64,000 bases of DNA from Candidatus Cloacimonadales bacterium. GTDB lineage: Bacteria; Cloacimonadota; Cloacimonadia; Cloacimonadales; DAONDQ01. Of the stretch, positions 16,363 to 33,570 are shown piece by piece (position 1 is the first letter of the stretch; each line of letters opens with the position of its first letter). The translations under genes and the position numbers were made by a program. Under the pieces are notes generated by a model that worked only from the letters and a program-made list of their open reading frames with translations, made no database searches and was not told the DNA's origin. The stretch is taken from contig OY759316.1 of assembly GCA_963662275.1 (NCBI GenBank), positions 3,328,001 to 3,392,000 of the forward strand, read 5' to 3'.

Positions 16363-16452
16363 TGTAACGGAGTTTTATCATTTATTATTATGCGTCAAGA
16401 AGAATATTTAGGAGTTAAGAATTCGATGATGAAAATGATAAAAAAAACTGAC

Positions 16453-16529
16453 ACTTGTAACCTGTACCCTGTCACCTGTCACCTGTCACCTGTACCCTGT
16501 ACCCTGTACGCTGTATGCTGTATGCTGTC
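16453..16529. repeat. Degenerate heptamer tandem repeat, about 11 units
   Basis: (A/C)CCTGT(A/C) units grading into TGCTGTA in the divergent coaX/SGNH intergenic region. Confidence 0.85.
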
Positions 16530-18057: not shown

Positions 18058-19531
18058 TCGTTTTGTAATTCAATCAGTTGCTTCTATCTTTTGCCTGTTG
18101 ATGTTGACAGGTTCTTCGTTTGCCGACTCTGATAAGCTGAATATTCAGAATAATACCAGTTTTTCCTTACAATCGGAAAAGGAAGCAGTAGCATCCAATT
18201 TCATTAAATTAACAATGAATCGAACTTCCTACTCATTTATCAGAAAAGACAAGAATATACTTCAAAATGATAGCTTAGGCATGTCTCGTTTTTATCAGAA
18301 ATTATTAGCATTAAGACAAGGAAAAATCGAGCATGTGAATATCGTTCAGATTGGTGATTCACATTTACAATCAGGTTTTACTCCCGATGAAGTAAGATCT
18401 GGCTTGCAGGATTTCTTTGGTGATAGTGGCAGAGGTTTAGTTTTTCCTTATAGAACTGTTGGCGCAAATGAACCTAATGATGTTCTTCTTACTACACAGG
18501 GTTGGGCAAAAGGAAATTCTTCAACAAAAACCTATACCGTTAGAAAAGGTGATACAAAATCAGGGATTGCACGTCGGTTCGGGAAAAGCACAAAATCATT
18601 GAATCGGCTAAATCCCGGTCTGGCTTCAAAGAAAACAATTAAACCCGGTCAGGTACTGATCATTAGTAACTCAACACAAAAGATTCCACCTGGGTTATGC
18701 GGTTATTCTTTGAGAACTTCTTCGAATTTAAATTCGATCACGGTGATTACAAAAACAATAGCGAATGCTTCTCAACAATTCAATATGCTTTCGCTTTTAA
18801 TGGATAGCACGGACAGGAAAATTTCAATAGAAGTCAGCGATAAAAATAATAAACTCCTGGTAAAATCTGTGATTGACCCTTTATCAAACGCAATGAATAG
18901 CGTTCCACTCGCCTGGTCTGATTCTGTGAATTCAGTGCAGATCAAAGTAAACAGTTTGAATGGTGCGAATCCAGGTGTCACTCTCTATGGTATAACTTTG
19001 GAGAGAAATGCCCCTGGCATCATGTATCATAGCATTGGTATTAGTGGTGCAGGATTTGTGAGATATAATCAGAATTTACGCTTTTTCAAACAACTGACGG
19101 TATTAAAACCGGATTTAGTCATTGTTTCGCTTGGGACAAACGATGCTATGGGTACATTTCGCTTAACTAGCTGTGAGCAGGATGCCCTGGAATTCCTTTC
19201 TAACATCCAGGAAGTATTACCCAATGCGGATATTTTACTTACAACACCGCCCAATACATATAAAGTATCTCGTAAAGGAAAAGTGGAAGTTTATGCAATC
19301 CCCCAGATCTGTGATATGATGAAGGATGTTTCGAATTTCAACGGCTTTGCCTGGTGGAACTTCTATGAAATTATGGGTGGACAAGGCTCAATGAAGAAAT
19401 GGGTTAGCAACGGCTTGGCTCAGTACGATCACAAACATTTCAGCGCAAACGGATATCGGGAACAGGGTTATCTGCTTCGTGATTCGATCCTGCAGGGGTA
19501 TGCTTCCTATGTGGCAAGACTGGCTAAATAA
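18038..19531 (+). CDS. SGNH/GDSL esterase with inserted LysM domain (Ape/PatB-like)
   Basis: IGDSHLQ, SLGTND, DHKHF; LysM YTVRKGDTKSGIARRFG..LNRLNP..IKPGQVLII. Confidence 0.85.
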   Translation: MTISNANRFVIQSVASIFCLLMLTGSSFADSDKLNIQNNTSFSLQSEKEAVASNFIKLTMNRTSYSFIRKDKNILQNDSLGMSRFYQKLLALRQGKIEHVNIVQIGDSHLQSGFTPDEVRSGLQDFFGDSGRGLVFPYRTVGANEPNDVLLTTQGWAKGNSSTKTYTVRKGDTKSGIARRFGKSTKSLNRLNPGLASKKTIKPGQVLIISNSTQKIPPGLCGYSLRTSSNLNSITVITKTIANASQQFNMLSLLMDSTDRKISIEVSDKNNKLLVKSVIDPLSNAMNSVPLAWSDSVNSVQIKVNSLNGANPGVTLYGITLERNAPGIMYHSIGISGAGFVRYNQNLRFFKQLTVLKPDLVIVSLGTNDAMGTFRLTSCEQDALEFLSNIQEVLPNADILLTTPPNTYKVSRKGKVEVYAIPQICDMMKDVSNFNGFAWWNFYEIMGGQGSMKKWVSNGLAQYDHKHFSANGYREQGYLLRDSILQGYASYVARLAK

Positions 19532-20975
19532 CCTGCTATCCCTTCTTGTTTACGATGTACATAAACCATTGCTGTTTAACAGTATGTTCTTCTTTATTTA
19601 TTTCCTCTTACTTCTCATCTTTTATCAATTCATCCTGAAAAAAGTCAATGTCAGAACGTGGTATCTGATTGCTTTTTCCCTGTACTTCTATTATAAGACC
19701 AGCGGTATTTTTGTCCTTTTATTGATTACCACAGCTTTCATTAATTTCGTGATCAGCGAGTGGATAGATGCTTCCACATCGGAACGAAAGCGGAAATGGC
19801 TATTCTTCTTAAGTATTGTCTGGAACTTGGGAACACTCGGATATTATAAATACACAAATTTCTTTTTCCAAGCGCTGAATGACATAGGGCATCTGAATCT
19901 CCAGCATGTGGATATTTTCCTGCCCATTGGTATCTCTTTCTTCACCTTCCAAACGATGAGCTACACATTTGATATCTATCGTCGTAAGCTTAAACCGACA
20001 AAGAGTTTTGCTGACTTACTCTTCTTTGTGGCATGTTTCCCGCACCTGGTTGCAGGCCCTATTGTCAGGGCTGCCAAGTTCCTACCACAGGTACGTAAGA
20101 AAATTACACTGAGTAATGCGCAAATGGCATCAGCATTATTCCTGATCATCAGCGGACTGGTAAAGAAAGCTGTTATTGCAGATTATATCAGCATCAACTT
20201 TGTAGAACGTGTCTTTTCAGAACCTGGACGCTTCAGCGGAGTGGAGAACCTGCTTGCCATTTACGCTTATGCCCTGCAGATCTATTGTGATTTCTCCGGT
20301 TACTCGGATATTGCGATAGGCTTGGCTAGGTTGATAGGTTTTGAACTTTGTGAAAACTTCAATTTACCCTATCGCTCAAAGAGCATTACTGAATTCTGGA
20401 GAAGATGGCATATCTCACTTTCCTCCTGGTTGAAGGATTATCTCTATATCCCTCTTGGTGGTAATCGAAAGGGAAAGATCAGACAGTATGTGAACCTGAT
20501 GGTGACAATGCTTCTCGGTGGACTTTGGCATGGTGCTTCCTGGAATTATGTTGTCTGGGGCGGTATTCATGGGATAGGTCTTTGTGTAGATAAACTGCTT
20601 TTGAAATGGAAGTTCCTGAACACTTGGCTGGGAAAGTCAATGGGCTTGATCATTACCTTCCATTTCGTCTGTTTCGCTTGGATCTTCTTCAGGGCACCGG
20701 ATTTTGCCTCAGCAGGTGTTATGTTGAAACAGATTTTCACTGCTTTCCAGGCTCCTGTTTTCTTCGACTGGATCAAAGGCTTCAGGGGCGTCGCTATCCT
20801 GATGCTCTTCGGCTATGTCATGCACTTCATTCCCCGAAAATTCGACGAAATATCGGAAAAGATACTTTATCATCTGCCGGTCCCTGCCCAATCCCTGATC
20901 ATTGCTGCTGTCATTTGGGTTATGTACCAGGTCAAATCTTCCGATATCCAACCGTTTATCTATTTCCAGTTTTAA
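19509..20975 (+). CDS. algI: MBOAT family O-acyltransferase (AlgI/PatA type)
   Basis: LPIGISFFTFQ, FPHLVAGPIVRA, QIYCDFSGYSDIAIG, FWRRWHISLS, GLWHGA, C-terminal PFIYFQF; start at ATG 19509. Confidence 0.9.
   Translation: MWQDWLNNLLSLLVYDVHKPLLFNSMFFFIYFLLLLIFYQFILKKVNVRTWYLIAFSLYFYYKTSGIFVLLLITTAFINFVISEWIDASTSERKRKWLFFLSIVWNLGTLGYYKYTNFFFQALNDIGHLNLQHVDIFLPIGISFFTFQTMSYTFDIYRRKLKPTKSFADLLFFVACFPHLVAGPIVRAAKFLPQVRKKITLSNAQMASALFLIISGLVKKAVIADYISINFVERVFSEPGRFSGVENLLAIYAYALQIYCDFSGYSDIAIGLARLIGFELCENFNLPYRSKSITEFWRRWHISLSSWLKDYLYIPLGGNRKGKIRQYVNLMVTMLLGGLWHGASWNYVVWGGIHGIGLCVDKLLLKWKFLNTWLGKSMGLIITFHFVCFAWIFFRAPDFASAGVMLKQIFTAFQAPVFFDWIKGFRGVAILMLFGYVMHFIPRKFDEISEKILYHLPVPAQSLIIAAVIWVMYQVKSSDIQPFIYFQF
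20923..20975 (+). repeat. Direct repeat copy 1 (last 53 bp of the MBOAT gene)
   Basis: TGTACCAGGTCAAATCTTCCGATATCCAACCGTTTATCTATTTCCAGTTTTAA; 51/53 identical to 29416-29468. Confidence 0.95.
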
Positions 20976-20976
20976 A

Positions 20977-21450
20977 TTACCAGCATCTTCTCAGTTTTGT
21001 TGCCTGCTGAACTTGTTTTTTTGAAAATTGTTCCAAGGATACTATGAAGTCGTTGATTTTGGCATCAATCAATCCCATTAGCTTGCAGATATTATCAAAT
21101 TTGTCTTGATATGGACCCTCAAAAAAAGAAGGATCAGGGAAACTCCAATGCAGATGTTTTAAAGCTCCCAGAAAAATGGGACAACGTTCTCCACTCGCAT
21201 CGTCGCAAACCGTGATTACAAAATTGAATCTTGCTTGTTTCTTTTGAAGATCAAATACGTTCTTCGTCTTTTTATTTGAAATATCAACTCCAATTGATTT
21301 TAGGACATCTATTACCATAGGATTGAGCTCACCCGGTTCCAAACCGGCACTTTCGACATGGATTGCATCCCCTAACTTCAAACGGAGAAGCTCTTCTGCA
21401 ATTTGGCTGCGAGCTGAATTATGGATACAGACGAAGAGTACTTTGATCAT
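20977..21450 (-). CDS. arsC: Arsenate reductase, thioredoxin-type (LMW-PTP fold)
   Basis: CIHNSARSQIAE P-loop, VITVCD..ERCP, HWSFPDP. Confidence 0.8.
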   Translation of the reverse strand: MIKVLFVCIHNSARSQIAEELLRLKLGDAIHVESAGLEPGELNPMVIDVLKSIGVDISNKKTKNVFDLQKKQARFNFVITVCDDASGERCPIFLGALKHLHWSFPDPSFFEGPYQDKFDNICKLMGLIDAKINDFIVSLEQFSKKQVQQATKLRRCW

Positions 21451-22118
21451 GATAAGTCTTCTTTTTTCAGGTTTTCTTCTAAGTGATGCTTAATGACTCT
21501 TCCTTGCACGATATAGACAGTATTTTCACCGATATTCGTACTTAAATCAGCTACTCTTTCAAAGTTCTTGGCAATTCTCAGCAAATGCATGTAATGCTCA
21601 ATTTCAGCGGGACGGTCTTTCATTAATGAGACAATTTGATGATATATACGTCGATTATAACCATCTACTATTTCATCCTGGCTGCAGACTAGTCTTGCTT
21701 TGTCCACGTCTTCTTTCATGTAGGCATCAATGCTATCCAACAGCATTTTTAGGGCTACTTCTTTCATTTTTATAAGGTCGGGCAACTGAGAGTTTAAAGG
21801 GCTACCTGTCATTTTAGCGACACTTTCGGCGATATTAAATGCTTGGTCCCCTAATCTTTCCAAGTCATTATTGATTTTATAGATCATGAGGATCAAACGT
21901 AAGTCTTTTGCTTCGGGATGGAATAATGCCATAAGGACTATGCAATCATCTTCTATCTGCATCTCCATTTGATTTACTTTTTGCTCAAACTCCGCTACTT
22001 CATCGAATCTGTTAATGCCTTTTTCTATGCCTTCAAATGAGTAAGAAACCATCTTTTCAACAGTGGCTGCCATTTCGATGATCTTCTCTTTTAATTGTGT
22101 AATCTTAGTGATTAACAT
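21447..22118 (-). CDS. phoU: Phosphate signalling protein PhoU
   Basis: PEAKDLR, DLERLGD, FERVADLSTNIGE; directly downstream of pstB. Confidence 0.95.
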   Translation of the reverse strand: MLITKITQLKEKIIEMAATVEKMVSYSFEGIEKGINRFDEVAEFEQKVNQMEMQIEDDCIVLMALFHPEAKDLRLILMIYKINNDLERLGDQAFNIAESVAKMTGSPLNSQLPDLIKMKEVALKMLLDSIDAYMKEDVDKARLVCSQDEIVDGYNRRIYHQIVSLMKDRPAEIEHYMHLLRIAKNFERVADLSTNIGENTVYIVQGRVIKHHLEENLKKEDLS

Positions 22119-22127
22119 ATGTTCTCC

Positions 22128-22886
22128 TTAACCAAAGACACCGGTAAGATATGCTTCAGTTCGCTTATCCTGGGGCACCGTAAATACTTTATGGGTTTCT
22201 CCAAATTCAACCAGTTCGCCCAGGTACATATAAGCAGTGTAATCCGAAATCCTGCCTGCTTGTGAGATATTATGGGTAACAATTAGAATTGTCACATGTT
22301 TTTTTAATTCGACACAAAGCTCTTCAATTTTGGCAGTTGATTGCGGATCAAGAGCAGAAGTGGGTTCATCGAGAAGGAGAACTTCCGGCTTGTTAGCCAA
22401 AGCCCGAGCAATGCATAAACGCTGTTGTTGTCCGCCTGATAGTGACATTGCTGATTCCTGCAATCTATCCTTGACTTCTTCCCATATACAGGCTGCCTTT
22501 AAACTCTCTTCTACCCTGTCTTGAATTTCATTTTTTTTGTATTTGCCTTGAACAACAAGTCCATATGCCACGTTACTGTAAATTGATTTGGGAAAAGGAT
22601 TGGGTTTCTGAAATACCATACCAACCCTGGTTCGGATGTTTGTTACATCAGCTTTTGAATCATAAATATCTTCACCACTCAAAAGCACATTTCCTGTTAT
22701 CATGGTTTCAGCTATCAGGTCATTCATACGATTGAAGGTTCGAAGAAGTGTTGATTTTCCACATCCGCTTGGACCAATTATAGCAGTTATTTTCTTTTCT
22801 GCGATTCCAATATTAACATCATGTAAAACCTGGTTGTCTCCAAACCAAAGGTTAAGTTCTTTTGTTTGAATCTGATTGTTTACCAT
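22128..22886 (-). CDS. pstB: Phosphate ABC transporter ATPase
   Basis: [43 protein letters not shown]. Confidence 0.97.
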
Positions 22887-23734
22887 TTTCTTTTCTTCCT
22901 CATTCTATAACGTATTATGATAGCCACTGAGCTAACGCCCATTACCAGGAGTAATAAAACAACCGCTGAACCATATGCTATTGGGACTTGAGATTCTGCA
23001 TGTGTACCTTCGGTCATCAAAGCATAGATATGATACGGTAATGCCATAACTTCATCAGATAAACTTCTTGGCAGTCTTAATGAGTAAAAAGTAGCTGCCG
23101 TAAACATGATCGGTGCGGTTTCTCCTGCTACTCTTCCGATGCTGATGATGATTCCAGTCAGGATATTTGGCAAAGCTGTTGGTATCAGGACACGCATTAT
23201 TGTTTGACTCTCCGTTGCTCCTAAAGCCAGTGAAGCTTGATAAAAATCGTTTGGAACTGCACGTAAAGCTTCCTCACTAGTATTAATAATGACTGGTAAT
23301 GCCAATACTGCAAGAGTCAGCGAACCTGAAATAAGGGAAACGTTCATTTTCAGCAGATTCACAAACAAAGCTAAACCAAATAAGCCATAGACAATCGAGG
23401 GAATTCCCGCAAGAGTATTGATTGATATCCTAACTATTTTCATCAGCCACCTGGGTTTTCCATAACAATTCAGGAATATAGCAGTCGCCAATCCTAAGGG
23501 TAATGCAATCGAAATGGATAAGACCGTCAGCCAAAAAGTTCCAACTAAAGCTGGATAGATTCCGCCTTCAGTCATGCCTTTTAAAGGTGACTGAGTTAGG
23601 AAACTCCAACTGATAACTACCAGTCCTTTAGAAAGTATCTTGTACAAAAAAAGAACTAAAAAACCAATAGTTACTGCTAAACAGATTCGCATGACATTGA
23701 TTCCAATGAATTGTTTAACGCTTCTCTTGTTCAT
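22880..23734 (-). CDS. pstA: Phosphate ABC transporter permease
   Basis: [25 protein letters not shown]. Confidence 0.95.
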
Positions 23735-24600
23735 TTCTTTACTCTCTTTAAAAAGACAAGCTCTGTCACTAGATTACTTACAAATGTAATGACAAAAAGT
23801 ATGATCGCCAAGGCAAACAAAGCATTGTAATGCACATCTCCAACAACTGTTTCGCCCATTTCAGAGGCAATTGCAGATGTCATTGGTCGTACAGAAGAGA
23901 AGATATTATGTGGAATTTGAGCGCTGCCACCTGCTACCATTAATACAACCATCGTCTCACCTATAGCTCTGCCAAAACCTATCAGTATACTGCCTATGAT
24001 ACCGCTTTTAGCTGCAGGCACAACTACTTTCGTAATGGTTTCCCAGGGAGTCGCACCAAGAGCCAATGATGCTTCTCTTAGATTTTTAGGCACGTTTGTA
24101 AGTGCATCTTCACTCATGCTTGTAATGATTGGAATTATCATAATTCCTAAGATGACAGATGCTGAGAATAAATTCAGTCCTGAATCTAATCCAAATAACT
24201 GTCGGATAGCAGGAGCCAGGAATGCCATTCCAAACAAACCATATACAACGGAAGGTATTCCTGCAAGAAGTTCAACAATTGGTTTTGTGATTTCTTTCAT
24301 TCTTGAGCTTGCTAATTCTGCAATATATATTGCTGAACCTAATCCCAAAGGTACAGCAATGATCAAAGCACCCAAAGTCACATAGATCGATCCAATAATC
24401 AAACTGCCGACACCAAATGCAGGTGGATCGTGAGTTGGATACCAGGCAATACTGAAAAGGAATTCTTTCACACTGACAACACGAAATATTGGTAAACCTT
24501 CCTTAAAAATACTGAATATAATCCCAATTAGGAACACCATGACAAACATGGATGCTGTATAGGTTATGGCTCTAAAGAACTTTTCTTTGTATGAATTCAC
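23731..24600 (-). CDS. pstC: Phosphate ABC transporter permease
   Basis: ELLAGIPSVVYG, GRAIGETMVVLMVAG. Confidence 0.95.
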   Translation of the reverse strand: MNSYKEKFFRAITYTASMFVMVFLIGIIFSIFKEGLPIFRVVSVKEFLFSIAWYPTHDPPAFGVGSLIIGSIYVTLGALIIAVPLGLGSAIYIAELASSRMKEITKPIVELLAGIPSVVYGLFGMAFLAPAIRQLFGLDSGLNLFSASVILGIMIIPIITSMSEDALTNVPKNLREASLALGATPWETITKVVVPAAKSGIIGSILIGFGRAIGETMVVLMVAGGSAQIPHNIFSSVRPMTSAIASEMGETVVGDVHYNALFALAIILFVITFVSNLVTELVFLKRVKK

Positions 24601-24621
24601 ATTTGTTCCTTTTCCTCATGT

Positions 24622-24656
24622 CAAGAAGGGACACAGGAGGGGTGCATCCCTTCTTG
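24622..24656 (-). promoter_or_regulatory. pstS-pstC intercistronic stem-loop
   Basis: CAAGAAGGGA...TCCCTTCTTG 10-bp perfect stem just after the pstS stop; probably stabilises pstS mRNA or partly terminates. Confidence 0.6.
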
Positions 24657-24675
24657 TTTCTGTTTAATCACTCAA

Positions 24676-25488
24676 TTAGTCGAGAGAAATGAAGCCATTG
24701 TCTTTTACGATCTTTTGTCCTTCAGCAGATTGGATAAATGATATAAAAGTCGCAGCATTGCCTTTGGCTTTGCCATTTGTATACATATAGAGCTTGCGGC
24801 TAAGTTTATAACTCATATCTTTTACAGTCTTTTCAGTAGGTAGAACATTATCAATAGTTAAAGCATGAACCTTATCCGTCATGTATCCAAGCCCGATATA
24901 ACCAATTGCCCCAGGAGTATCACCAACGGATGAAGCAACCGCATTGTTTGAAGCAAGCATCTGGGCAGAATCAATTACTTTTGAACCTTGCAATGCTTTT
25001 TCATTAAAGACTTCGAATGTTCCTGATGAAACGTCCCTGGATATAACCACAATTGGTAAGTTCTTCCCTCCCAGTTGACTCCAATTGGTCAGTTTTCCAG
25101 TGTAGATACTTTTCAATTGTTTGAGTGAGATTCCTCTTACACCGTTGGCATTATTCACAATGATAGCAATACCATCGTTCGCAACGAAATATGGAACAGG
25201 GTTAATCCCTTTTCCTTTAGCCTGTGTAATTTCTTTGGCTTTCATTGGACGGGATGAGTTTGCTATATCTGCTGAATTTGATAGCAAGGCTGCTATGCCA
25301 ACACCACTGCCGCCACCCCGAATGGATATATTCACAGAAGGATATTTTGCCATAAAGGCTTCTGCTGCAGCCTGGGCAATAGGCAGAACTGTGGTCGAAC
25401 CTGAACAGGTCAATTGATTAGCACTTTTAGAAAATAAGGGTATTGCAATCAGCAGTATCACAAGGATTATGATGGTCATTCTTTTCAT
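24676..25488 (-). CDS. pstS: Phosphate-binding protein
   Basis: SGSTTVLP, GGGSGVG, ANSSR, SRDVSSGTFEVF. Confidence 0.95.
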   Translation of the reverse strand: MKRMTIIILVILLIAIPLFSKSANQLTCSGSTTVLPIAQAAAEAFMAKYPSVNISIRGGGSGVGIAALLSNSADIANSSRPMKAKEITQAKGKGINPVPYFVANDGIAIIVNNANGVRGISLKQLKSIYTGKLTNWSQLGGKNLPIVVISRDVSSGTFEVFNEKALQGSKVIDSAQMLASNNAVASSVGDTPGAIGYIGLGYMTDKVHALTIDNVLPTEKTVKDMSYKLSRKLYMYTNGKAKGNAATFISFIQSAEGQKIVKDNGFISLD

Positions 25489-25508
25489 GATAGATATCTC
25501 CAGTTTTC

Positions 25509-26702
25509 TTAATTCGTTAAAGTATTAGAGAATTTCCATTTCAGTTGGAGCATGATCTGGCTGCTGTCCTTCATTCCTTTGGCAAATGAACTGGCAGATT
25601 CACTCTCATCATACTTCCTGGAGGAATAGTCCAACTGTAATGTAAGTTGTGGAATATCAGAAGCATCAGGTAGGAAACCATAATTAACACCGAATATCAA
25701 GGTATTCAGCAGTGATCTGGCAGAATCAGTTGTTGGTCTATCACTTTCATCCCAGCTATCGTATCTCCCGATTACTTCAATTGGTATATTAATAATCGAT
25801 TTCAAAGCAATCGAAGGCATAATCATCAAGCCCTTGGCTTTATAATCTTTCCCGGTTGCATTGGGGTACTCGACCTCTTTGGATATATATTCCATCCAAA
25901 CATCTGCCGGACCATAAGCGATACGACCTAAACAGTCTATGAGGCTCTGCTTTTCAAATTTGCTATTTATCACATCCCCCGATAGTGTTTTATCTCTTCC
26001 AACAGAGTTACTCATATATGAACCACCTATTGTTACGCCTTGTATGGGTGTCAAACGCAGATTACCGAGATAAGTGAAGTCAGTATTTTCGCTTAGGCTA
26101 GCCCCAACTTTTTTATAACCTTCACCATTATATAATCCAAAAGCATATTCTCCCCAACCTTGTGGAATGAAACCGTTTAGGGTGATTCCATAGTCAGACG
26201 AGTTAACCACTTTATATAGATCACTAGGTGCTTTTTCAATTAGCGCATAACTCCAATCATAGATGGTCCCGAAGTATGTTTTCTGCAGTCCGACGGTTAA
26301 GTACAAATCTGGAATTGGAGTCAAATTGCCAAATTCAACATATCCATATTTGAGCTTTAGTCCTGCTCCGTCCATAGTAGCATTTTTTAAAGAGTCTATA
26401 GGCATGGTTTTATCACCGGGAACCTGATGAGTGGCATCTGAAGAAAACATATCCACTGTAAACCTGGCTTTCGTATTGGTTGAAAAGGATGTTTCAAGTC
26501 CAAAATATCCTCTTTCCAAGGATAAATAGTTTTTAGATAGCTTGTTAACGTAACTGCCTTGGGCATTTTTGAACTTGGCTGTTTCGTTTGTCCACCGCCC
26601 CCACATTTCTCCGCTTAGTTTTGTTTCCAGGGCAGAAGCGAACACCGAAACACATAGCAGGCTTGCTGTTACAATAAGCTTACTGAGCAATTTGATCGTC
26701 AT
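25509..26702 (-). CDS. Outer-membrane beta-barrel, putative phosphate-selective porin
   Basis: Signal peptide, amphipathic strands, LYNGEGY motif; first gene of the pst operon. Confidence 0.65.
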   Translation of the reverse strand: MTIKLLSKLIVTASLLCVSVFASALETKLSGEMWGRWTNETAKFKNAQGSYVNKLSKNYLSLERGYFGLETSFSTNTKARFTVDMFSSDATHQVPGDKTMPIDSLKNATMDGAGLKLKYGYVEFGNLTPIPDLYLTVGLQKTYFGTIYDWSYALIEKAPSDLYKVVNSSDYGITLNGFIPQGWGEYAFGLYNGEGYKKVGASLSENTDFTYLGNLRLTPIQGVTIGGSYMSNSVGRDKTLSGDVINSKFEKQSLIDCLGRIAYGPADVWMEYISKEVEYPNATGKDYKAKGLMIMPSIALKSIINIPIEVIGRYDSWDESDRPTTDSARSLLNTLIFGVNYGFLPDASDIPQLTLQLDYSSRKYDESESASSFAKGMKDSSQIMLQLKWKFSNTLTN

Positions 26703-26751
26703 TTGATTCTCCTTTTTTATTTGCTTAGTCTGCTTAATTATACGCTTTGAA

Positions 26752-26814
26752 TGTTAAGATTGTATAAACTTTATGTTAAGAATTGCTAACACTTTAGAAA
26801 ATACCGATTGTTAA
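26752..26814 (-). promoter_or_regulatory. Putative Pho boxes (TTAACA-type direct repeats)
   Basis: Minus strand TTAGCA/TTAACA/TTTATA/TTAACA at 10-11-bp period (26789-26752), plus TTAACA at 26814-26809, between the divergent porin-pst and phoBR units. Confidence 0.65.
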
Positions 26815-26904
26815 GAATAATTAACCGAATTTGCAGATATTTAGCTTGTCATGAACTGGTAGTATTGCTTTATGGGGGCGTTTTGCTAAACAAAGAGAGA
26901 TAAT

Positions 26905-27624
26905 ATGTCTTTAATCTATGTCCTGGATGATGAGCCTGATATTCTCGAGTTAGTCGAGTTGAATCTGACCAAAGCTGGCTTTGAAGCCCATTGCTTTGAA
27001 CGGGCAATTCCTTTACTACAGACCCTTAAGATAAAATTACCCGATCTTCTCATCCTTGACCTCATGCTACCAGACATAGACGGGATTGAAGTTTGCAGTC
27101 AAATTCGTCAACACCCAAAAATGAAAAGCCTTCCTGTTCTGATGTTAACTGCCAAAGTTGAAACTGATGAAAGGATTCATGGATTAGAAACCGGAGCTGA
27201 TGATTATCTTACAAAGCCATTTTCGCCTGGTGAACTAATTGCCCGAATCAAATCGATATTACGCCGCAAGGATTGGGAAACCGAAAACAATATACTGGAG
27301 ATAAGCTCTGATTTTCGTATTGATTTCAATTCATATGAAGTATTGATAGATGATAAACGTATCGATTTAACAAGAACAGAGTTCAAAATACTCCAATTGC
27401 TGACAAAACAACCTGGGAGAGTCTATAATCGCTCACAGATACTTGACTATCTTTGGGGAACCGACAAGATAGTGATAGATCGAACCATCGATGTCCATAT
27501 CAAACATCTACGAGAAAAGATTGGTCGTTTCGGTGAGTATATCCGTAATATTCGAAGTGTAGGATATAAATTTGAAATAGATTCCTGCAACGAAGAGAAA
27601 ATAGAAGAAAAAGATAATGAATAA
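26905..27624 (+). CDS. phoB: OmpR/PhoB family response regulator
   Basis: DDEPDI, LDLMLP, GADDYLTKPF, LTRTEF, RTIDVHIKHLREK; pst context. Confidence 0.9.
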   Translation: MSLIYVLDDEPDILELVELNLTKAGFEAHCFERAIPLLQTLKIKLPDLLILDLMLPDIDGIEVCSQIRQHPKMKSLPVLMLTAKVETDERIHGLETGADDYLTKPFSPGELIARIKSILRRKDWETENNILEISSDFRIDFNSYEVLIDDKRIDLTRTEFKILQLLTKQPGRVYNRSQILDYLWGTDKIVIDRTIDVHIKHLREKIGRFGEYIRNIRSVGYKFEIDSCNEEKIEEKDNE

Positions 27625-28789
27625 ACAAAAACCGATTTACAGAAGACCAATCCTTTGTCTTATCATATACTTGTTTTGCGTCCTATGTTTAATGGTATAT
27701 CCCCTACCTATCTTGTTTAGATTATCGATAATTTTCATATTATCAGTACTAATCATTCAAATCTGGAATCGGAATTACCAGCATCTCAATGTTCACAGGG
27801 AAGAACTTCGCATGGTAGCAAATACGATTGAGGATGCAATGTGGTCAATCAAGCCGAACGGAACGATTGAATGGATGAATCCTGCTTTCTTATCTATCTT
27901 TAACGCTTCTGAAGACCAGCGATATAAGAATTACACAGAGGTTATAAAGGTTCCTGTTGTTCGGCAATTTATCAGGGATTTTATGCAAAATCAAGAAGAA
28001 AGAATGTCCGAAGTAACTTTCGATGACCAATACTACCTCATTACAGGATCAATCAATCCCAATGCAGAGCGCATTGTCTTTATTATGCAGAATATCAATT
28101 TGATTCGACAAACCGAAAAGATGAAAAAGGATTTTATGGTCAATGTTGCCCATGAACTTCGCACCCCCCTGACTGCAATTAAAGGTTTTACTTTAGCCCT
28201 GGAAGAAGACTTTACAATAGACAACAAACGGTATTTGAAGATTATTAAGAACCATACAGACCGTCTTATTAATATGATCAGTGACTTGCAAACATTAGCA
28301 AAATTAGAACGTATGCCAGAATTGGATATCCAGGAGATTGACTTGAGAATATTCATGGAGAATATCATGGATATGTATGTACCTTCAATCCAGAAAGCAG
28401 GACTTTATCTGAAATACACCCAATATCCTGAAGATATACTCGTTAGTGTTGATCCCTTTAAATTTGAACAGATATTTGTTAACCTTATCGACAACGCTCT
28501 TCATTATACAGACAATGGGGGATTCAGCATTTCGGCAATAAAGACAGATAGCGATCTTACTATAGAAGTAGCGGATACCGGTAGTGGTATTTCTATTGAA
28601 CATATTTCAAGGATTTTTGAACGGTTTTATGTAGCTGATCCTTCCCGGAACAAGAAGATCAGCGGTACTGGTTTAGGATTGGCGATTGTGAAACATGCTG
28701 TTCTGTTGCATCATGGCAGTATTAATGTTTTGAGTGAGCCAAACAAAGGTACCCGTTTTACGATGATATTTCCTAATCAGTTTATTTAA
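27617..28789 (+). CDS. phoR: Phosphate-regulon sensor histidine kinase
   Basis: Two TMs, PAS-like region, NVAHELRTPLTAIKG, NLIDNA, DTGSGI, IFERFY, GTGLGLAIVKH. Confidence 0.9.
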   Translation: MNKQKPIYRRPILCLIIYLFCVLCLMVYPLPILFRLSIIFILSVLIIQIWNRNYQHLNVHREELRMVANTIEDAMWSIKPNGTIEWMNPAFLSIFNASEDQRYKNYTEVIKVPVVRQFIRDFMQNQEERMSEVTFDDQYYLITGSINPNAERIVFIMQNINLIRQTEKMKKDFMVNVAHELRTPLTAIKGFTLALEEDFTIDNKRYLKIIKNHTDRLINMISDLQTLAKLERMPELDIQEIDLRIFMENIMDMYVPSIQKAGLYLKYTQYPEDILVSVDPFKFEQIFVNLIDNALHYTDNGGFSISAIKTDSDLTIEVADTGSGISIEHISRIFERFYVADPSRNKKISGTGLGLAIVKHAVLLHHGSINVLSEPNKGTRFTMIFPNQFI

Positions 28790-28801
28790 GGATATTGAGA
28801 A

Positions 28802-29314
28802 ATGAATGATAGGTTCACTTCTAACATATTGATAACAGAGAATGAAAATCTTGTTTATTCTATTGCCAGGTCATACCAAATGAAAGGTATCCCTATTGAA
28901 GATATTACCCAGGAAGGTTTTATGGGTCTATTAGAAGCTCATCAGCACTTTGACCCATCCAAGCAAGCTAAATTCAGTACCTATGCCGTTTATTGGATAA
29001 AGAAGTATATCTTACTTGCTTTTGAAAAAGAAAATGATCATGGAAAAAAGATAAAAGATTCGTATTCCGATCTAAACGAGCAAAAAAAGCATAAGTACTC
29101 TCTTCAAGTATCAGATCAAGGATTCTCCAAACTGCTAAAATTGCCTCCAGATATGCCTGTCTTAGAAGAAAGTGTTATCCGGCTTAGTTATGAAAAGAAA
29201 ATGCCTATAAAAGAAATAGCTCTTCATCTGGATTTAACAAATGAGAAAGTTAGACAAATTAGGGAAAAGGCATTAAGAAGAATCAAATGTAAGCAATCCT
29301 CGTGCTTCCTCTGA
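28802..29314 (+). CDS. Minimal sigma-70 family factor (regions 2 and 4 only)
   Basis: DITQEGFMGLLEA..FDPSKQAKFSTYAVYWIK; IKEIALHLDLTNEKVRQIREKALRRIK. Confidence 0.85.
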   Translation: MNDRFTSNILITENENLVYSIARSYQMKGIPIEDITQEGFMGLLEAHQHFDPSKQAKFSTYAVYWIKKYILLAFEKENDHGKKIKDSYSDLNEQKKHKYSLQVSDQGFSKLLKLPPDMPVLEESVIRLSYEKKMPIKEIALHLDLTNEKVRQIREKALRRIKCKQSSCFL

Positions 29315-29415
29315 TATTATGAACAAATCACAAGAAATTTAATGAGAGAAAAACCGATCATAACCGAACCAAGTCCCGGTTATCGTGCCGTAATGCTGCG
29401 GTAATTTCGGAGTTT

Positions 29416-29468
29416 TGTACCAGGTCAAATCTTCCGATATCCAGCCGTTTATCTACTTCCAGTTTTAA
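29416..29468 (+). repeat. Direct repeat copy 2 (displaced MBOAT 3' end)
   Basis: Two differences from copy 1, both synonymous (CAA/CAG, TAT/TAC); degraded homology extends upstream to about 29395. Confidence 0.95.
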
Positions 29469-29474
29469 TATTAT

Positions 29475-29554
29475 CGTGGAACTCTTAATTTATTGCGTTA
29501 TCCCCGTGGAACGCTTAATTTGTTGCGTTATCCCCATGGAACTCTTAATTTATT
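29475..29554. repeat. 30-bp tandem repeat, about 2.7 copies
   Basis: CGTGGAACTCTTAATTTATTGCGTTATCCC units at 29475, 29505 and 29535. Confidence 0.85.
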
Positions 29555-29661
29555 AGGCTATGCTTTGACCGGAATGCTTCATTCATTGGCTTTGTGTTTG
29601 CCAGTTGAAATTGCATAGCCGTTTGAAAACAGCGTTCCGAGATTCCTAAAGAAATAACTAC

Positions 29662-32600
29662 CTATGCAAGCTCTTCTTTCTCGCTTTTATTGATTTCATC
29701 TAGAAACTCTAGCGATTCAATGGTTTTGGGATGTTGTTCACCAAGTTTTTCTCTGCGTATAGAGAGTGCCAGTTCATAATAATCCTTTGCCTGTTCATAA
29801 TTTTTCATATTTCGATAAGCATTGCCAATATTGAACAAGTTCAGAGCAACAACTGGATGCCTCTCTCCCAGTGTATCCTTGTTGATTGATAAAGCCTGGA
29901 ATAAATATTCCAGTGCTTTATCAAATTCAGCCCTATCCATATGAATACAACCAATATTGTTGAGGCTGCCAGTGATATTCGGGTGATGATTACCCAGGTT
30001 GTCCTTCAAGATTGACAATGCTTTCTGAGAATAATCAAGAGCTTGATCAAAAGCAGCTTTTTGATAGTAAACCATGCCAATACTGTTTAGGCTTAGAGCA
30101 GTGTTCAGATGATCGACACCCCAGATTTTCTGTTGTATGGAAAGCGCTTTTTGATGAAATTCAAAGGACTTATCAAAATTGCCTATTTTCTTAAAGTAAC
30201 TGCCAATATTATTATATGACACTGAAGTCTCCTGGTTCTCTTCTCCAAAAGCCTCAAGCCGAATAGATAACGCTTGCTGAAAATACTGATACGCTTTATC
30301 AAATATTCCCTTGTAATCATATGCAATACCAATGTTGTTTAAAATCTTAGCTGTTTCAGGGTGCCTCTCTCCATATACTTCCTGTCGAATTGCCAGTGAC
30401 TTCTGATAGTATTCCAGAGCTTTATCATATTCACCCATATTACAATAGACCGATCCTATATCATGATAACTTTCTGCTGTAGCGACATGCTTCTCACCTT
30501 GAAATTGCCTGTTTGAAAACAATGCAGACTCGTAATAGGATATACTGCTCTCAAAGTGAAATTGTCTCTTTTCATATTCACCGACTCTGTTGTAATATTG
30601 AACCGCTTTTTCCCATTCTCCGGCTTTATCAAAGTGTCTCGCCAGTTCCCCAAGCCTGGTGTTATCCTCAACATAGTGCTTTTCGATAATTTGTGCTGCA
30701 AGATAATGCAGTGATTTTATCTGTCTTTTTAGCTGCATTTCGTAGGCTGCTTCCCGTAGTAAGCTATGGCTGAAGATATATTTTATTTCGCTAATGGCAT
30801 TCCAGATATGTTCCTGTTCGCCTGCATGAAGTTGACTTTGAACGATGAGTTCATTGAGATATTCAGGACGTTGTTCGAGAGTTTCCAGCATCTCTTTGAG
30901 TATTTCCACAGCAAATTCACAACCGAGGACACTGGCTGTTTGCACAGTACGCTTGAGTTCAACTTCCAACCTATCCAAACGGGCTACCAGCAAAGATTGA
31001 ACTCCCATTGGTAATACTTCCGTCTGTTCCTTGAGTTGATAAAGTCCCTGAACGATATGCAATTTCCCGGATTCTTCCAGGTAACATACGAGTTGCTCAA
31101 CGAGGAAGGGATTTCCCTGAGAAATAGATAAGATATATTCAGTAAATTCCTCTCCAGGTGGAGTTTGTAGAATTTCTTCTATCAAAGCCATTACCTGCTG
31201 CTTGTTCAGACCATCCAGGTCAGTCGAGGTCGTATTCACATCCTTATCCAATTTAAGAACAGGTTTACTGCCGTCATCCAAAGGTCGGGATGTTAGAATG
31301 AATTTGAAAGGAACATTGTTAGCTCTCCTTGTAAGAATCGTGATAGTCTCTTCTGATTCTTTATCCAACCAATGCAAATCTTCAATGATTAGAACAACAG
31401 GTTTATCAAGCGTAAGCGTTTCCAATAAAGTTCTAAGGGCAAAACCCGTGACAGAAGATCGGTATTTAGGATCTAAATCAGCATAAATACTGCCTTCCCA
31501 TTCCAATCCTATCAGACCTGCAAGTACGGATTCAATCCTTTCAAGCTCTTTGATTAGACTTGGATACACAGCGAGAGATATGTTCCGTGTCTTTTCGATA
31601 AAACCAGCCCAATGAATTCGGAAATCTGTACGACGGGATTCAATGCTCCCCGTCAGTTCTGTAGTAAACAACTGTCTGATCCAATGAGCAAAAGGATTGA
31701 GAGGTGATCTGTGAATGGAATCGGTCTGCAGGAAAAAAGAACTGACTCTGTCGCCAAGTAGTTGTGTCAATTCAAAGACTAACCTGGATTTTCCTTGTCC
31801 TGCTGTACCATAGATGTAACTGACATGTGCAAATTGATGATCAAAAAGAAGATCGCAGGAGTTTGTTAAGTCTTTCAATTCCTGTTCCCTGCCGATAAAA
31901 CTACTCTGATAGTGCGAATGTGCTTTACTCTGTTCTCTTCCTAGCAACTTGTAGGTTCTGATTGGGTTCGGATAACCTTTCAAACTGATTTCTCCTAAAT
32001 CAGCGAAAGCAAAATCATTCTTCAAGGCAGCTTGTATTGGATGATCACACCAGATTTCACCCCAATCCGCTTTTAACATATATCTGGCAGATAAGTTTAC
32101 TGTCATCCCAATACCTGTGTAAACACTCCTGCTTCTTGAGCCAATAAAACCTGCAAAAGCCATCCCCTGGGTCAAGCCAATCCGGGCTTGTTCTCTGAAA
32201 GAACCTTGTAATTCAAAGGCAAAATTCATCGCTCTTTGCTGGATTCTCTCGTAATTCAAGGGAGCACCAAACATAATATAAGCCACCCATCCTTTGTCGG
32301 TGCAATCTATGTGGCTGAAGTATCCTCCATATTTTTGAACTGCATTGAGAATCACTAAGACCTGCTCCTCCGTAGGACTTTCCAGATTGATGAAGCAGGA
32401 AAGTACTTCACGGAATTCACCCTCTGAAGTGAGTCCTGTTACTGATTCTGGAAGGAAATCTGAATAGGAATGAACAATATCTTCTTTTGCACTACCAGCA
32501 CTGATTGTATATTTATCTAATCGATACAGCTTGATAGCGCTGTCAGGTTGAACTTCCTGATTTGTATGAAAAGGAATCTTGGTGAATTGGCTTTGGCTGT

Positions 32601-33126
32601 TTTTCTCATCGACTGTAAAAGTAGTGGTAACTTCATTCGTTTGTGATGTAGACTGAGCAATCACTGCCTGTATTATTCCTTCTCCGCTAAACCAAAATGC
32701 AGACTGACTCTCGCTCTGCACAATCTTCCATTCAACTTTTCCGTAAGCAACACCAATTCTTGAAGCTATTTCAAATTCTCCATATTGGGTTATTTGTTTA
32801 CCCTGTATTTTGATTGAATCCCTTACTTCCATTGCTGCTGATAGCACAGCAGTAATACCATCATTGGGGAATATGACGGTAAAAGCATCACCGGCAAAAC
32901 CTGCAATAAATCCACCTCGGCTATGTACAGCTTGGATTGCTGGTGAAAAAACAGCATTGATTGTATCTGTGAGAATCTCAACCCCGGCATGAGAATGACT
33001 CATGAGTTCTTGTGTCAGGAAAGTGAACCCAATCAAATCAACGCTTATCACATAAGCATCGAATATACCACTGAACTTATGCTGTTTATAATTGGAAATA
33101 ATAAATTCAGGAATCAGGACTCGCAT
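29662..33126 (-). CDS. Tandem class III nucleotide cyclase + STAND/AAA ATPase + TPR protein (soluble adenylyl cyclase-like architecture)
   Basis: C1 VDLIGFT..FAGDAF; C2 DKG..FGAP..GMTVNLSAR; Walker A GTAGQGKS; Walker B IIEDLHW; GNPFLVEQ; about 7 42-aa TPRs with G..HP. Confidence 0.9.
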   Translation of the reverse strand: MRVLIPEFIISNYKQHKFSGIFDAYVISVDLIGFTFLTQELMSHSHAGVEILTDTINAVFSPAIQAVHSRGGFIAGFAGDAFTVIFPNDGITAVLSAAMEVRDSIKIQGKQITQYGEFEIASRIGVAYGKVEWKIVQSESQSAFWFSGEGIIQAVIAQSTSQTNEVTTTFTVDEKNSQSQFTKIPFHTNQEVQPDSAIKLYRLDKYTISAGSAKEDIVHSYSDFLPESVTGLTSEGEFREVLSCFINLESPTEEQVLVILNAVQKYGGYFSHIDCTDKGWVAYIMFGAPLNYERIQQRAMNFAFELQGSFREQARIGLTQGMAFAGFIGSRSRSVYTGIGMTVNLSARYMLKADWGEIWCDHPIQAALKNDFAFADLGEISLKGYPNPIRTYKLLGREQSKAHSHYQSSFIGREQELKDLTNSCDLLFDHQFAHVSYIYGTAGQGKSRLVFELTQLLGDRVSSFFLQTDSIHRSPLNPFAHWIRQLFTTELTGSIESRRTDFRIHWAGFIEKTRNISLAVYPSLIKELERIESVLAGLIGLEWEGSIYADLDPKYRSSVTGFALRTLLETLTLDKPVVLIIEDLHWLDKESEETITILTRRANNVPFKFILTSRPLDDGSKPVLKLDKDVNTTSTDLDGLNKQQVMALIEEILQTPPGEEFTEYILSISQGNPFLVEQLVCYLEESGKLHIVQGLYQLKEQTEVLPMGVQSLLVARLDRLEVELKRTVQTASVLGCEFAVEILKEMLETLEQRPEYLNELIVQSQLHAGEQEHIWNAISEIKYIFSHSLLREAAYEMQLKRQIKSLHYLAAQIIEKHYVEDNTRLGELARHFDKAGEWEKAVQYYNRVGEYEKRQFHFESSISYYESALFSNRQFQGEKHVATAESYHDIGSVYCNMGEYDKALEYYQKSLAIRQEVYGERHPETAKILNNIGIAYDYKGIFDKAYQYFQQALSIRLEAFGEENQETSVSYNNIGSYFKKIGNFDKSFEFHQKALSIQQKIWGVDHLNTALSLNSIGMVYYQKAAFDQALDYSQKALSILKDNLGNHHPNITGSLNNIGCIHMDRAEFDKALEYLFQALSINKDTLGERHPVVALNLFNIGNAYRNMKNYEQAKDYYELALSIRREKLGEQHPKTIESLEFLDEINKSEKEELA

Positions 33127-33327
33127 GAGAACCTCCCCAAATGAGATATAATATTATCAATCCACAATATATATCCCGTCAAGAAAAAATAATATACTTT
33201 ATTCCTTTGATGAGTCCCCCTACCTTTCATTATCAATTATCATCGTAACTTGCATATTTCCTTTATAATTTCATGAAAGGCATCCAATTTCGAGTTGAAT
33301 GAAATGGGGTATAATTACTATACAACA

Positions 33328-33392
33328 ACGGTACCACTACGGTTTTTTACCGTAATGGTACCGTATTGCTACCGTATTGCTACCGTAATGCT
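33328..33392. repeat. 11-bp direct repeats (four ACCGTA(A/T)TG(C/G)T) preceded by two inverted ACGGT half-sites
   Basis: Units at 33349, 33360, 33371 and 33382; ACGGT at 33328 and 33339. Confidence 0.8.
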
Positions 33393-33570
33393 CATATGTT
33401 GCAAAGAGAGTAAAAAGGGGACTATTATTAGTTACGTTCCGAAAATTTTTCTTCTCTCTCTTTTCTACCCTAGTCTCTGGTCTCTAACACTTTCACCTAA
33501 ATATTTAAGTGAGTGAGCTTTTTGCCAAAATCAAGGGAGCATTTGTAAAAAAGCTGGAATTTCTTCAAAA

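Follow-up and report, generated by a model that had tools for sequence, protein, structure and literature searches.

The end of an MBOAT O-acyltransferase gene is present twice in a Cloacimonadota genome, and the two copies enclose a set of pho/pst genes within the window, the 64-kb stretch of DNA that was analysed. The results indicate that the duplicated gene end is a real but fairly ordinary scar of a DNA insertion and that the pho block between the copies, judged from trees and protein identities, was laterally acquired from a lineage of another family. A decayed, integrase-less island of the CIME-like kind, situated at the 3′ end of the gene, is the reading that we prefer, with a probability of about 0.4. 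Cloacimonadota are common in digesters, and the locus would be a clean, datable example of an uncultured anaerobe gaining complete high-affinity phosphate uptake and its regulation, for which its congener has no counterpart, with the exact insertion point marked by the duplicated gene end. The scar is a single one, its general type is known, and it opens no long-standing question.

The MBOAT gene (19479..20975, plus strand; 498 aa; PF03062, 98.7 bits) is intact, and its last 17 codons and stop form the left repeat copy (20923..20975, plus strand) in an attL-like position. Alignment and a genome-wide search confirmed the original prediction that these 53 bp recur about 8.5 kb downstream with two synonymous differences. 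The second copy lies at 29416-29468 and is identical at 51 of 53 positions; the differences, A/G at repeat position 29 (CAA/CAG) and T/C at position 41 (TAT/TAC), are both synonymous third-position transitions. A repeat search extended the pair to 57 nt (20919-20975 versus 29412-29468, 95% identity). The blastn-short search showed exactly two copies in the 4.38-Mb single-contig genome, and tblastn with the MBOAT protein as query detected the orphan end as a 20-residue match inside a 24-codon open frame, untranslatable as part of the gene.

The homology between the copies ends on the right at the MBOAT stop codon, while on the left identity falls sharply from 96% to a decayed stretch, the weaker homology starting at about position 20896 in the gene. 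In an anchored alignment, the approximately 30 nt just upstream of the repeat scored higher than 98.7% of shuffled sequences and 99.2% of windows drawn at random from the genome (P ~0.01), but similarity farther upstream was not significant (P = 0.09). Degraded homology upstream of the repeat had been reported earlier; its proximal 30 nt are probably real and the more distant part did not hold up, suggesting a homologous tract of about 80 nt (~29389-29468). The orphan MBOAT 3′ end, in an attR-like position, was accordingly delimited as 29389..29468 (plus strand), with 29416-29468 96% identical to the gene end and 29389-29415 degraded by three substitutions and two small insertions. The degraded part keeps an A-A-V-I coding run, in which two third positions are changed, and has two small insertions. 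Synonymous-only divergence had been taken to mean that both copies were once coding alleles; this argument depends on two substitutions, and the probability that both are synonymous by chance is 0.03 (all substitutions) to 0.12 (transitions only). The outgroup, congener G001, has G at the first variable position and T at the second, so that outgroup states are split between the two copies and the variable positions are uninformative.

An assembly artefact, a concern already raised with the original prediction, or a chance resemblance through the conserved C-terminal motif of MBOAT proteins would explain the second copy without any insertion. In runs X1 and X3, which come from two studies and may include the sample from which the genome came, 25,883-nt Logan contigs match 18000-29637 without a mismatch or a gap. 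These independent contigs span both copies and both junctions without difference, indicating that the repeat is not an assembly artefact, and the genome itself is one contig. The motif, IQPFIYFQF, is widely conserved, and short similar stretches do occur at paralogues (22 nt at 818840, by blastn-short). However, the two copies agree at 51 of 53 positions including synonymous ones, whereas the six other MBOAT-family matches found in the genome by tblastn share at most 22 nt with the repeat. Artefact or chance is thus extremely improbable. Short-read contigs break at a REP-like palindromic element in the right flank (29475..29650), the left arm of which is triplicated as a 30-bp tandem repeat (29475-29564); arms of this element were found also at four other genome loci, and it is probably host-side sequence. 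Neither an empty-site joint (20975 to 29469) nor a circle joint (29415 back to 20976) was found in four runs, all of which are represented by Logan contigs, which drop rare variants. A joint 21455>32894 in X3, with only 20 letters on its shorter side, was treated as spurious.

The 8.4-kb block between the repeats (20976-29388) contains ten genes, all of them pho genes, and is predicted to be an accessory phosphate-starvation module consisting of a high-affinity Pst transporter, PhoU, a porin, PhoBR, a sigma factor and an ArsC-like phosphatase. Pfam and NCBIfam searches bore out the earlier description of everything between the copies as one functional unit, with the arsC and porin assignments resting on sub-threshold matches. 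The transport half (20977..26702, minus strand) comprises the ArsC-like LMW phosphatase (20977-21450; 91 bits versus a cut-off of 174), phoU (21447-22118; TIGR02135, 172.4 bits, cut-off 130.25), pstB (22128-22886; TIGR00972, 384.9 bits, cut-off 343.2), pstA (22880-23734; TIGR00974, 283.8 bits, cut-off 193.45), pstC (23731-24600; TIGR02138, 303.1 bits, cut-off 196.45), pstS (24676-25488; TIGR02136, 270.8 bits, cut-off 206.6) and a putative phosphate porin (25509-26702; 19.5 versus 20.9 bits). The regulatory half (26905..29314, plus strand) comprises a phoB-like response regulator (26905-27624), a phoR-like histidine kinase (27617-28789) and a sigma-70 family factor of 170 aa (28802-29314). The best models for the regulator and the kinase are PhoB and PhoR/PnpS, both below the equivalog cut-offs (231 versus 296 bits and 272 versus 400 bits), and a PhoB-PhoR role is supported by the linkage with pst that is conserved in four other genomes (G040, G015, G022 and G028).

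Both junctions are short. The left spacer of about 50 nt (20976..21027) has no counterpart in the module of G040, and the arsC-like ORF reads through it, resulting in a 16-residue C-terminal extension (157 aa here versus 141 aa in G040). As first described, this ORF (end 20977) and the MBOAT stop (20973-20975) are 1 nt apart with no terminator between them; a scan of 20800-21200 found no terminator-like site. The right spacer of about 75 nt (29315..29388) shows no significant similarity to MBOAT and carries a hairpin (29360-29383, 9-bp stem) that reads as a minus-strand terminator.

In a maximum-likelihood tree of concatenated PstS-PstC-PstA-PstB-PhoU from 23 genomes, the genome under study, a member of family f1, nests inside genus g14 of family f3, as sister to G040 (SH-aLRT 98) and grouped with G015 (SH-aLRT 100). 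The five proteins are 81-87% identical to those of G040, and the transport half is 73% identical to it in DNA over 5.6 kb, the nearest module sampled. The identities of housekeeping and host proteins to G040 are 54-62% for RecG, 63% for proton pyrophosphatase, 74% for ribosomal protein S2 and 60% for MBOAT. The two g14 genomes share 86-87% identity with each other in S2 and pyrophosphatase, but just 75-86.5% in the pst/phoU proteins. The only congener, G001 (99% complete), gave no match to PhoU, PstS or PstC and possesses Pit-type transporters. The nested tree placement, the identities to G040 above those of housekeeping proteins and the absence of a match in the congener show that the module is foreign. 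The regulatory half is closest to G015 (73%, 65% and 49% for the phoB-like, phoR-like and sigma proteins) rather than to G040; with its two halves nearest to different genomes, the pho module appears to have been exchanged between families of the order as a mosaic.

The compositional comparison of the inside and outside of the repeats, proposed earlier as a check, gave no foreign signal: GC content was 38.3% versus 39.05%, and the tetranucleotide profile, at the 27th percentile, was host-typical; codon type likewise gave no signal. The nearest PstS among 5.8 billion proteins, the genome's own aside, is 85-86% identical. Given this value and a nearest module of only 73% identity in DNA, either the donor has not been sampled or the transfer took place long ago, and the latter fits poorly with the 96% identity retained by an orphan that is not translated.

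The MBOAT gene is vertically inherited, with 79% identity to congener G001 and about 60% to family f3. The left repeat completes the conserved C-terminal motif, so that the gene stayed intact, in line with the original proposal that its function was preserved. Upstream lie two GDSL-family acylhydrolase genes (16618-18057 and 18038-19531, plus strand; Pfam), the second with a LysM domain, which together with MBOAT form a conserved host operon. The GDSL-GDSL-MBOAT order is kept in five of seven relative loci and as GDSL-MBOAT in the other two, and it is kept also in the metagenome loci. In none of these 7 relative and 12 metagenome loci do the MBOAT/GDSL genes adjoin a pho module.

Neither pho genes nor the sequence from 29470 onwards follow MBOAT in any of the seven relative loci. 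No empty site was found in a 20-kb DNA search of G001, nor among 12 metagenome loci searched with a back-translated C-terminal pattern, the best of which (79%) belongs to the G001 species. In the closest relatives, G001 and metagenome loci L055 and L056, MBOAT is followed by other genes; at about 68% DNA identity, and with synteny lost on both sides of the operon, these relatives are too distant for the empty-site search to decide. An orphan MBOAT end was present in 0 of the 202 other genomes of the order (1 of 203 counting its own), and all 12 metagenome loci had a single match, with no element seen at the MBOAT site. Three other short-frame matches among the 202 genomes have 41, 46 and 82 codons, and one of them (G091) begins 30 nt from a contig start.

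According to the preferred reading, a circular intermediate bearing an MBOAT-end look-alike as an attP-like site would have integrated by a crossover within the last ~80 bp of MBOAT, placing the module directly 3′ of the GDSL-GDSL-MBOAT operon. One copy of the MBOAT end would complete the gene, and the other, moved to the distal boundary of the insert, would be decaying there without being translated. The catalysing recombinase would not, or no longer, be encoded in the island, and what remains would be an immobile, integrase-less relic between attL- and attR-like repeats. That the repeat dates from the insertion of the module is our inference, as are the circular form of the intermediate and the action of a site-specific recombinase. 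The sharp step from 96% identity to a decayed stretch, together with the end at the stop codon, fits a crossover region of which one copy was kept by selection on the C-terminal motif and the other was never translated. Also in favour of an island are the uniqueness of the repeat in the genome and of the orphan among 203 genomes, the foreign module beside conserved MBOAT/GDSL genes that never adjoin pho elsewhere, and the fact that integrase-less, att-flanked elements at target-gene ends have already been described. The host-typical composition argues against it, as do the lack of recurrence and of a recombinase or its remnant.

The searches for mobility genes agreed with the earlier remark that no integrase is near. 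No recombinase was found among the 45 ORFs of the window, which contains 0 of the genome's 15 PF00589 matches. No excisionase, transfer gene or pseudogene remnant was found between or beside the repeats, where the spacers measure no more than about 50 and 75 nt, and no tRNA, tmRNA or Rfam family was found near the island. A dif-like site for Xer recombination, which in IMEX takes the form of flanking repeats with two 11-nt inverted arms around a 6-8-nt spacer, was rejected, as arm complementarity was at most 6-7 of 11 and no better than in shuffles (P = 0.7-1.0). Positions 29562-29575 match exactly, over 14 nt, a 2.4-kb element that is present in 13 copies and carries a tyrosine recombinase. 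This lead towards a trans-acting enzyme was taken as chance because the match lies 885 nt inside the element, away from its ends. A k-mer scan of the genome for other two-copy direct repeats returned 159 segments, mostly paralogous duplications and a few isolated pairs; this says little, since the 30-nt exact-chain threshold misses the MBOAT-end repeat itself.

No flanking direct repeats were found around the related modules of G040 and G015, suggesting that the block is not self-mobile in the presumed donor clade. The G010 module has one 28-nt pair, 8.2 kb apart. A pho block that is a minimal recombinase-less cassette still on the move, with the MBOAT-end look-alike as attachment site and a recombinase supplied in trans or by another element, is very unlikely; if it were true, a full phosphate-starvation regulon would hop between Cloacimonadota lineages, always repairing its landing gene. 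With no recombinase or remnant, recurrence in 0 of 202 genomes and no repeats around the G040 and G015 modules, the site-specific form of the recombination originally proposed was not borne out by these data.

Insertion without a site-specific recombinase, by homology-facilitated illegitimate recombination or a RecA-dependent single crossover, is possible but doubtful. DNA of a close relative, carrying an MBOAT segment as anchor followed by the pho module, would have been joined illegitimately at its far end to the MBOAT gene of the recipient, about 80 (or 53-57) bp short of the stop codon, pushing the recipient's own end downstream as the orphan. This would account for the absence of recombinase and mobility genes and for the single occurrence among 203 genomes, and the homology would end at the stop codon because donor and recipient differ downstream. 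It would also account for both copies resembling the MBOAT of their own lineage: the degraded part of the orphan, with its A-A-V-I run, is like the MBOAT of its own genome and unlike the G040 type, which counts against the island. In the relevant part of PMC5361080, the orphaned 3′ regions at Rhs and T6SS effector loci are likewise proposed to have arisen in this way. However, a donor with MBOAT beside arsC-pho is needed, and this arrangement was found in 0 of 7 relative and 0 of 12 metagenome loci, so that the problem is moved back one step; moreover, uniform neutral decay can barely account for the 96%-to-decayed step in the orphan (binomial estimate ~0.05). Such a recombination would be expected to leave a donor-type mosaic in the anchor gene and a microhomology joint at the illegitimate end; the collections searched contain no same-species genome free of the event with which to compare.

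From the end of coaX at 16362 to the start of recG at 41647, the 25 kb show no synteny with the congener, and the gene that follows MBOAT in G001 has its orthologue at a distance of 91 kb, on the other strand with respect to MBOAT. In a genome rich in repeats, these findings suggest that the repeat could stem from a different rearrangement, unrelated to the acquisition of pho, which we consider unlikely. Either the MBOAT end and the module would have been duplicated in tandem and the second module copy then deleted, or the right-hand block would have come from a close relative with the last 80 bp of that relative's MBOAT at its edge. Beyond 29470, this block holds the REP-like element, a gene (29662..33126, minus strand; outside the pho block) whose 1154-aa product combines cyclase, AAA-ATPase and TPR domains, and a DNA methyltransferase with an unknown partner, which is typical mobile or defence cargo. 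An old module, at 73% DNA identity to its nearest relative, would fit better with a younger, separate origin of the 96% repeat. Yet a rearrangement would require either a pair of events, with a boundary falling precisely on the MBOAT stop codon, or a donor arrangement that was not observed; the genome has one PhoU and one PstS, with no trace of a second module copy anywhere, and the host-typical composition of the right-hand block means that nothing marks it as a newcomer.

Known systems share features with the locus. For Rhs, CDI and T6SS effector-immunity loci, the pertinent sections of PMC5361080 describe 3′-end displacement with orphans and propose homology-facilitated illegitimate recombination. 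As there, an incoming block replaces a gene 3′ end, the old end is shifted downstream as an untranslated orphan and no dedicated recombinase is needed. In those loci, however, as described in these sections, a variable toxin tip is displaced and the process recurs, building arrays, whereas at the pho locus both ends encode the same peptide, the insert is metabolic, unrelated and on the opposite strand, and the event is single. In marine Prochlorococcus, phosphate-acquisition genes are found on flexible genomic islands and tycheposons, according to the part of bioRxiv 10.1101/2020.12.28.424599 that treats them. Judged against that part, the pho locus is similar in its nutrient-uptake cargo, phosphate genes included, and in lateral block transfer into a plastic genome region, but phylum and habitat differ. 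Tycheposons carry their own recombinase and are mostly at tRNA genes, while the pho island has neither nearby.

Integrative elements at protein-coding 3′ ends include ICESt1/ICESt3 at fda and SGI1 at trmE, which have their own tyrosine integrase beside one att site. The pho island lacks such an integrase, but resembles these elements in its repeat of tens of bp over the end of a conserved housekeeping-type gene and in the restoration of the coding sequence by an element-borne copy. An ICE or IME must have a tyrosine, serine or DDE recombinase gene, or its remnant, inside or beside the repeats, whereas a CIME by definition has none. CIMEs are decayed ICEs or IMEs that have kept attL and attR and lost the genes for integration and transfer, and the sections of PMC5704250 devoted to them already describe insertion into protein-coding genes at their 3′ ends, as well as relics that lack an integrase and are flanked by att sites. 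In the light of these sections, an O-acyltransferase gene as island target is less unusual than was originally supposed. The comparison with the CIMEs described there has its limits: they were defined in Firmicutes, whereas the host here belongs to Cloacimonadota and mobility in cis is only conjectural, and neither a parent ICE/IME nor a related integrase-bearing element was seen at the site in 203 genomes and 12 metagenome loci, nor a decayed backbone. Like the CIMEs of that account, the pho locus combines flanking direct repeats that include the target-gene end, an interior free of integrase, foreign adaptive cargo and an intact target gene.

The final 53 nt of the MBOAT gene, including its stop codon (20923-20975), are present again at 29416-29468 with two differences, and a repeat search extended the pair to 57 nt (95% identity). 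A blastn-short search of the 4,378,784-bp single contig that holds the window found these two copies in the whole genome and none more. The duplication of the MBOAT end and its two synonymous differences, as described in the original prediction, are confirmed. Each difference is a transition at a third codon position and does not alter the encoded peptide. Within this stretch, a single substitution is synonymous in 18% of cases overall and in 34% if it is a transition, and the probability that both changes are synonymous by chance is 0.03 to 0.12, which is suggestive, but not proof, of both copies having evolved as coding sequence. In the roughly 27 nt just upstream of the second, orphan copy (from about 29389) the homology continues in decayed form: an A-A-V-I coding stretch is kept, with two small insertions and three substitutions. 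When anchored beside the repeat, this alignment outscored about 99% of controls, whether shuffled or drawn at random from the genome. Farther upstream, similarity to MBOAT was without significance (P = 0.09), and the right-hand limit of similarity is the stop codon. Of the order's 203 genomes, only this one had the orphan end, which was also absent from all 12 metagenome loci examined. A dif-like site in the repeat was also considered and was rejected, as the repeat has no dif-like symmetry.

The repeat-flanked structure is real. Runs from two studies, which may include the source sample of the genome, contain 25,883-nt contigs that match 18000-29637 without any difference; a 3,778-nt contig picks up from 29611, and the contig break lies within a repeat element, away from the MBOAT-end copies. 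No excision joint or empty-site joint was seen in the run data, which consisted of contigs only.

To the left of the repeat lies a GDSL-GDSL(LysM)-MBOAT operon. The genes between the copies (20976-29388) are pho genes only: an ArsC-like low-molecular-weight phosphatase gene, phoU, pstB, pstA, pstC, pstS and a putative phosphate porin gene on the minus strand, and phoB-like, phoR-like and 170-residue sigma-70 family genes on the plus strand. PstS, PstC, PstA, PstB and PhoU score above curated NCBIfam cut-offs, whereas ArsC, the porin, PhoB and PhoR were assigned as best matches with scores below cut-off. The arsC-like ORF is convergent with MBOAT and ends 1 nt from its stop codon, and no terminator-like site was found between the two genes. 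Compared with its homologue in G040 (family f3, genus g14), the ArsC-like protein has a C-terminal extension of 16 residues (20977-21033), encoded by a junction spacer of roughly 50 nt that has no counterpart in G040. To the right of the orphan are a palindromic, REP-like element in which one arm is triplicated (29475-29650), a 1154-residue cyclase/AAA-ATPase/TPR (STAND-like) gene (29662-33126) and an N6/N4 DNA methyltransferase gene overlapping a 301-residue ORF without family match (33863-35712); the last two may form a restriction-modification pair. No recombinase, transposase, tRNA, tmRNA or Rfam family was found within the window.

Several other repeats were observed. The REP-like element is roughly 110 nt long, its two inverted arms being conserved and the loop between them variable, and also occurs near genome positions 660821, 1218059, 3473605 and 4123148; its left arm in the window is a triplicated 30-bp tandem repeat at which short-read contigs end. 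Upstream of the GDSL-GDSL-MBOAT operon, intergenic 16448-16524 is made up of consecutive 7-nt units, with a 14-nt period and four overlapping copies of 35 nt. An imperfect 36-nt inverted repeat at 33308-33399, with no Rfam or tRNA match, matches at least 10 places on eight contigs of the sole congener (G001) at 74-85% identity, and so belongs to a dispersed repeat family common to the genus. Outside the window, 13 loci (e.g. near 462273, 907447 and 1278327) carry identical copies of an element of about 2.4 kb, apparently an active mobile element in multiple copies, and each copy codes for a tyrosine recombinase of 294 residues (PF00589, 127 bits each). A 14-nt match to this element was dismissed as a lead, since the match falls inside the element and is best put down to chance. 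Elsewhere in the genome, a single 414-residue integrase and a single Xer-like gene lie near 828343 and 1748669, respectively.

At the protein level, MBOAT shares 79% identity with its counterpart in the congener and about 60% with those of family f3, and the GDSL-MBOAT gene order is conserved throughout the order; the host operon is thus vertically inherited. PhoU, PstS and PstC had no match in the congener, whose genome is 99% complete, while Pit-type transporters are common to both genomes, and the same ten-gene pho architecture was found in other families. The identity of PstS, PstC, PstA, PstB and PhoU to their G040 counterparts is 81-87%, above the values for S2 ribosomal protein (74%), pyrophosphatase (63%), RecG (54-62%) and MBOAT (60%) in the same genome pair. 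Between G040 and its own congener G015, identity is 75-86.5% in the pst/phoU proteins compared to 86-87% in S2 and pyrophosphatase, and four of the five proteins are closer between this genome and G040 than between G040 and G015, the exception being PstB (85.7% versus 86.5%). In a maximum-likelihood tree built on these five proteins across 23 genomes, this genome fell inside g14 as sister to G040 (SH-aLRT 98), with the grouping with G015 supported at SH-aLRT 100; the tree omits the fetched loci G128 and G171 (gene missing or partial) and G163 (no PhoU past the filter). From these comparisons we conclude that the pho module was gained laterally, the simplest source being a g14-like lineage. The inserted island of the original prediction finds support in its general form, as a foreign block at a gene end with the gene preserved.

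Comparison of 20977-29314 with the G040 and G015 loci showed that PstSCAB and PhoU are nearest to G040 and that the porin, PhoB, PhoR and sigma factor are nearest to G015, implying that the block is a mosaic. In each half, the closest g14 member is nearer to this genome than to the other g14 genome. The DNA identity of the module to that of G040 is only 73%, the best PstS in a collection of 5.8 billion proteins, besides the genome's own, is 85-86% identical, and the GC content and tetranucleotide profile of the block are host-typical. Either the donor is unsampled or the transfer was not recent. In the pho locus of another genome (G010:C83), a 28-nt direct repeat (93%) was observed at 691-718 and 8926-8953, 8.2 kb apart, around porin-pst-phoU genes; this pair may be a dispersed repeat or flank a second module.

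The anatomy of the locus matches integration at the 3' end of a gene and so favours an att-type event. One copy completes MBOAT and the other is displaced to the far end; homology stops on one side at the stop codon, the limit of selection on the conserved C-terminal motif, and decays on the opposite side, as expected of never-translated sequence. Tentatively, with a probability of about 0.4, the island would be a decayed, integrase-less relic of the CIME kind (att-flanked elements without integration genes). However, there is no space for a mobility backbone and no trace of one, no repeats flank the related modules in G040 and G015, the orphan is unique in the order and metagenome loci surveyed, and the decayed arm resembles this lineage's own MBOAT rather than a foreign gene. 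These negatives fit a recombinase-free route, in which a homologous anchor in MBOAT is combined with an illegitimate joint, as has been suggested for 3' ends left orphaned at Rhs and T6SS loci (PMC5361080); this route requires a donor with the MBOAT-pho junction already in place and is rather unlikely. Insertion at the gene end is supported, but site-specific recombination, one of the routes put forward with it, was not demonstrated.

Comparison of 16400-41550 with congener contigs C14, C93 and C12 showed synteny from SprA to CoaX and from RecG onwards, but not in the 25 kb from coaX to recG, which is a plasticity zone where the MBOAT operon and the pho block lie together with defence-like genes and genes for several T9SS-tail proteins. 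This loss of synteny is in line with the repeat being the product of a separate local rearrangement, as are the position of the orthologue of the congener's MBOAT neighbour, 91 kb off and on the opposite strand relative to MBOAT, and the repeat-rich genome with its 13 identical recombinase-bearing elements; such an origin is nonetheless considered the least likely of those discussed.

The interest of the locus is local: it records that a complete Pho/Pst system was gained within Cloacimonadota. To call it unusual, as was done originally, was an overstatement. A duplicated MBOAT end with a foreign block is a fresh instance of an already known type of scar. As an att-type relic, the island would match the class of decayed, integrase-less CIMEs outlined in PMC5704250.
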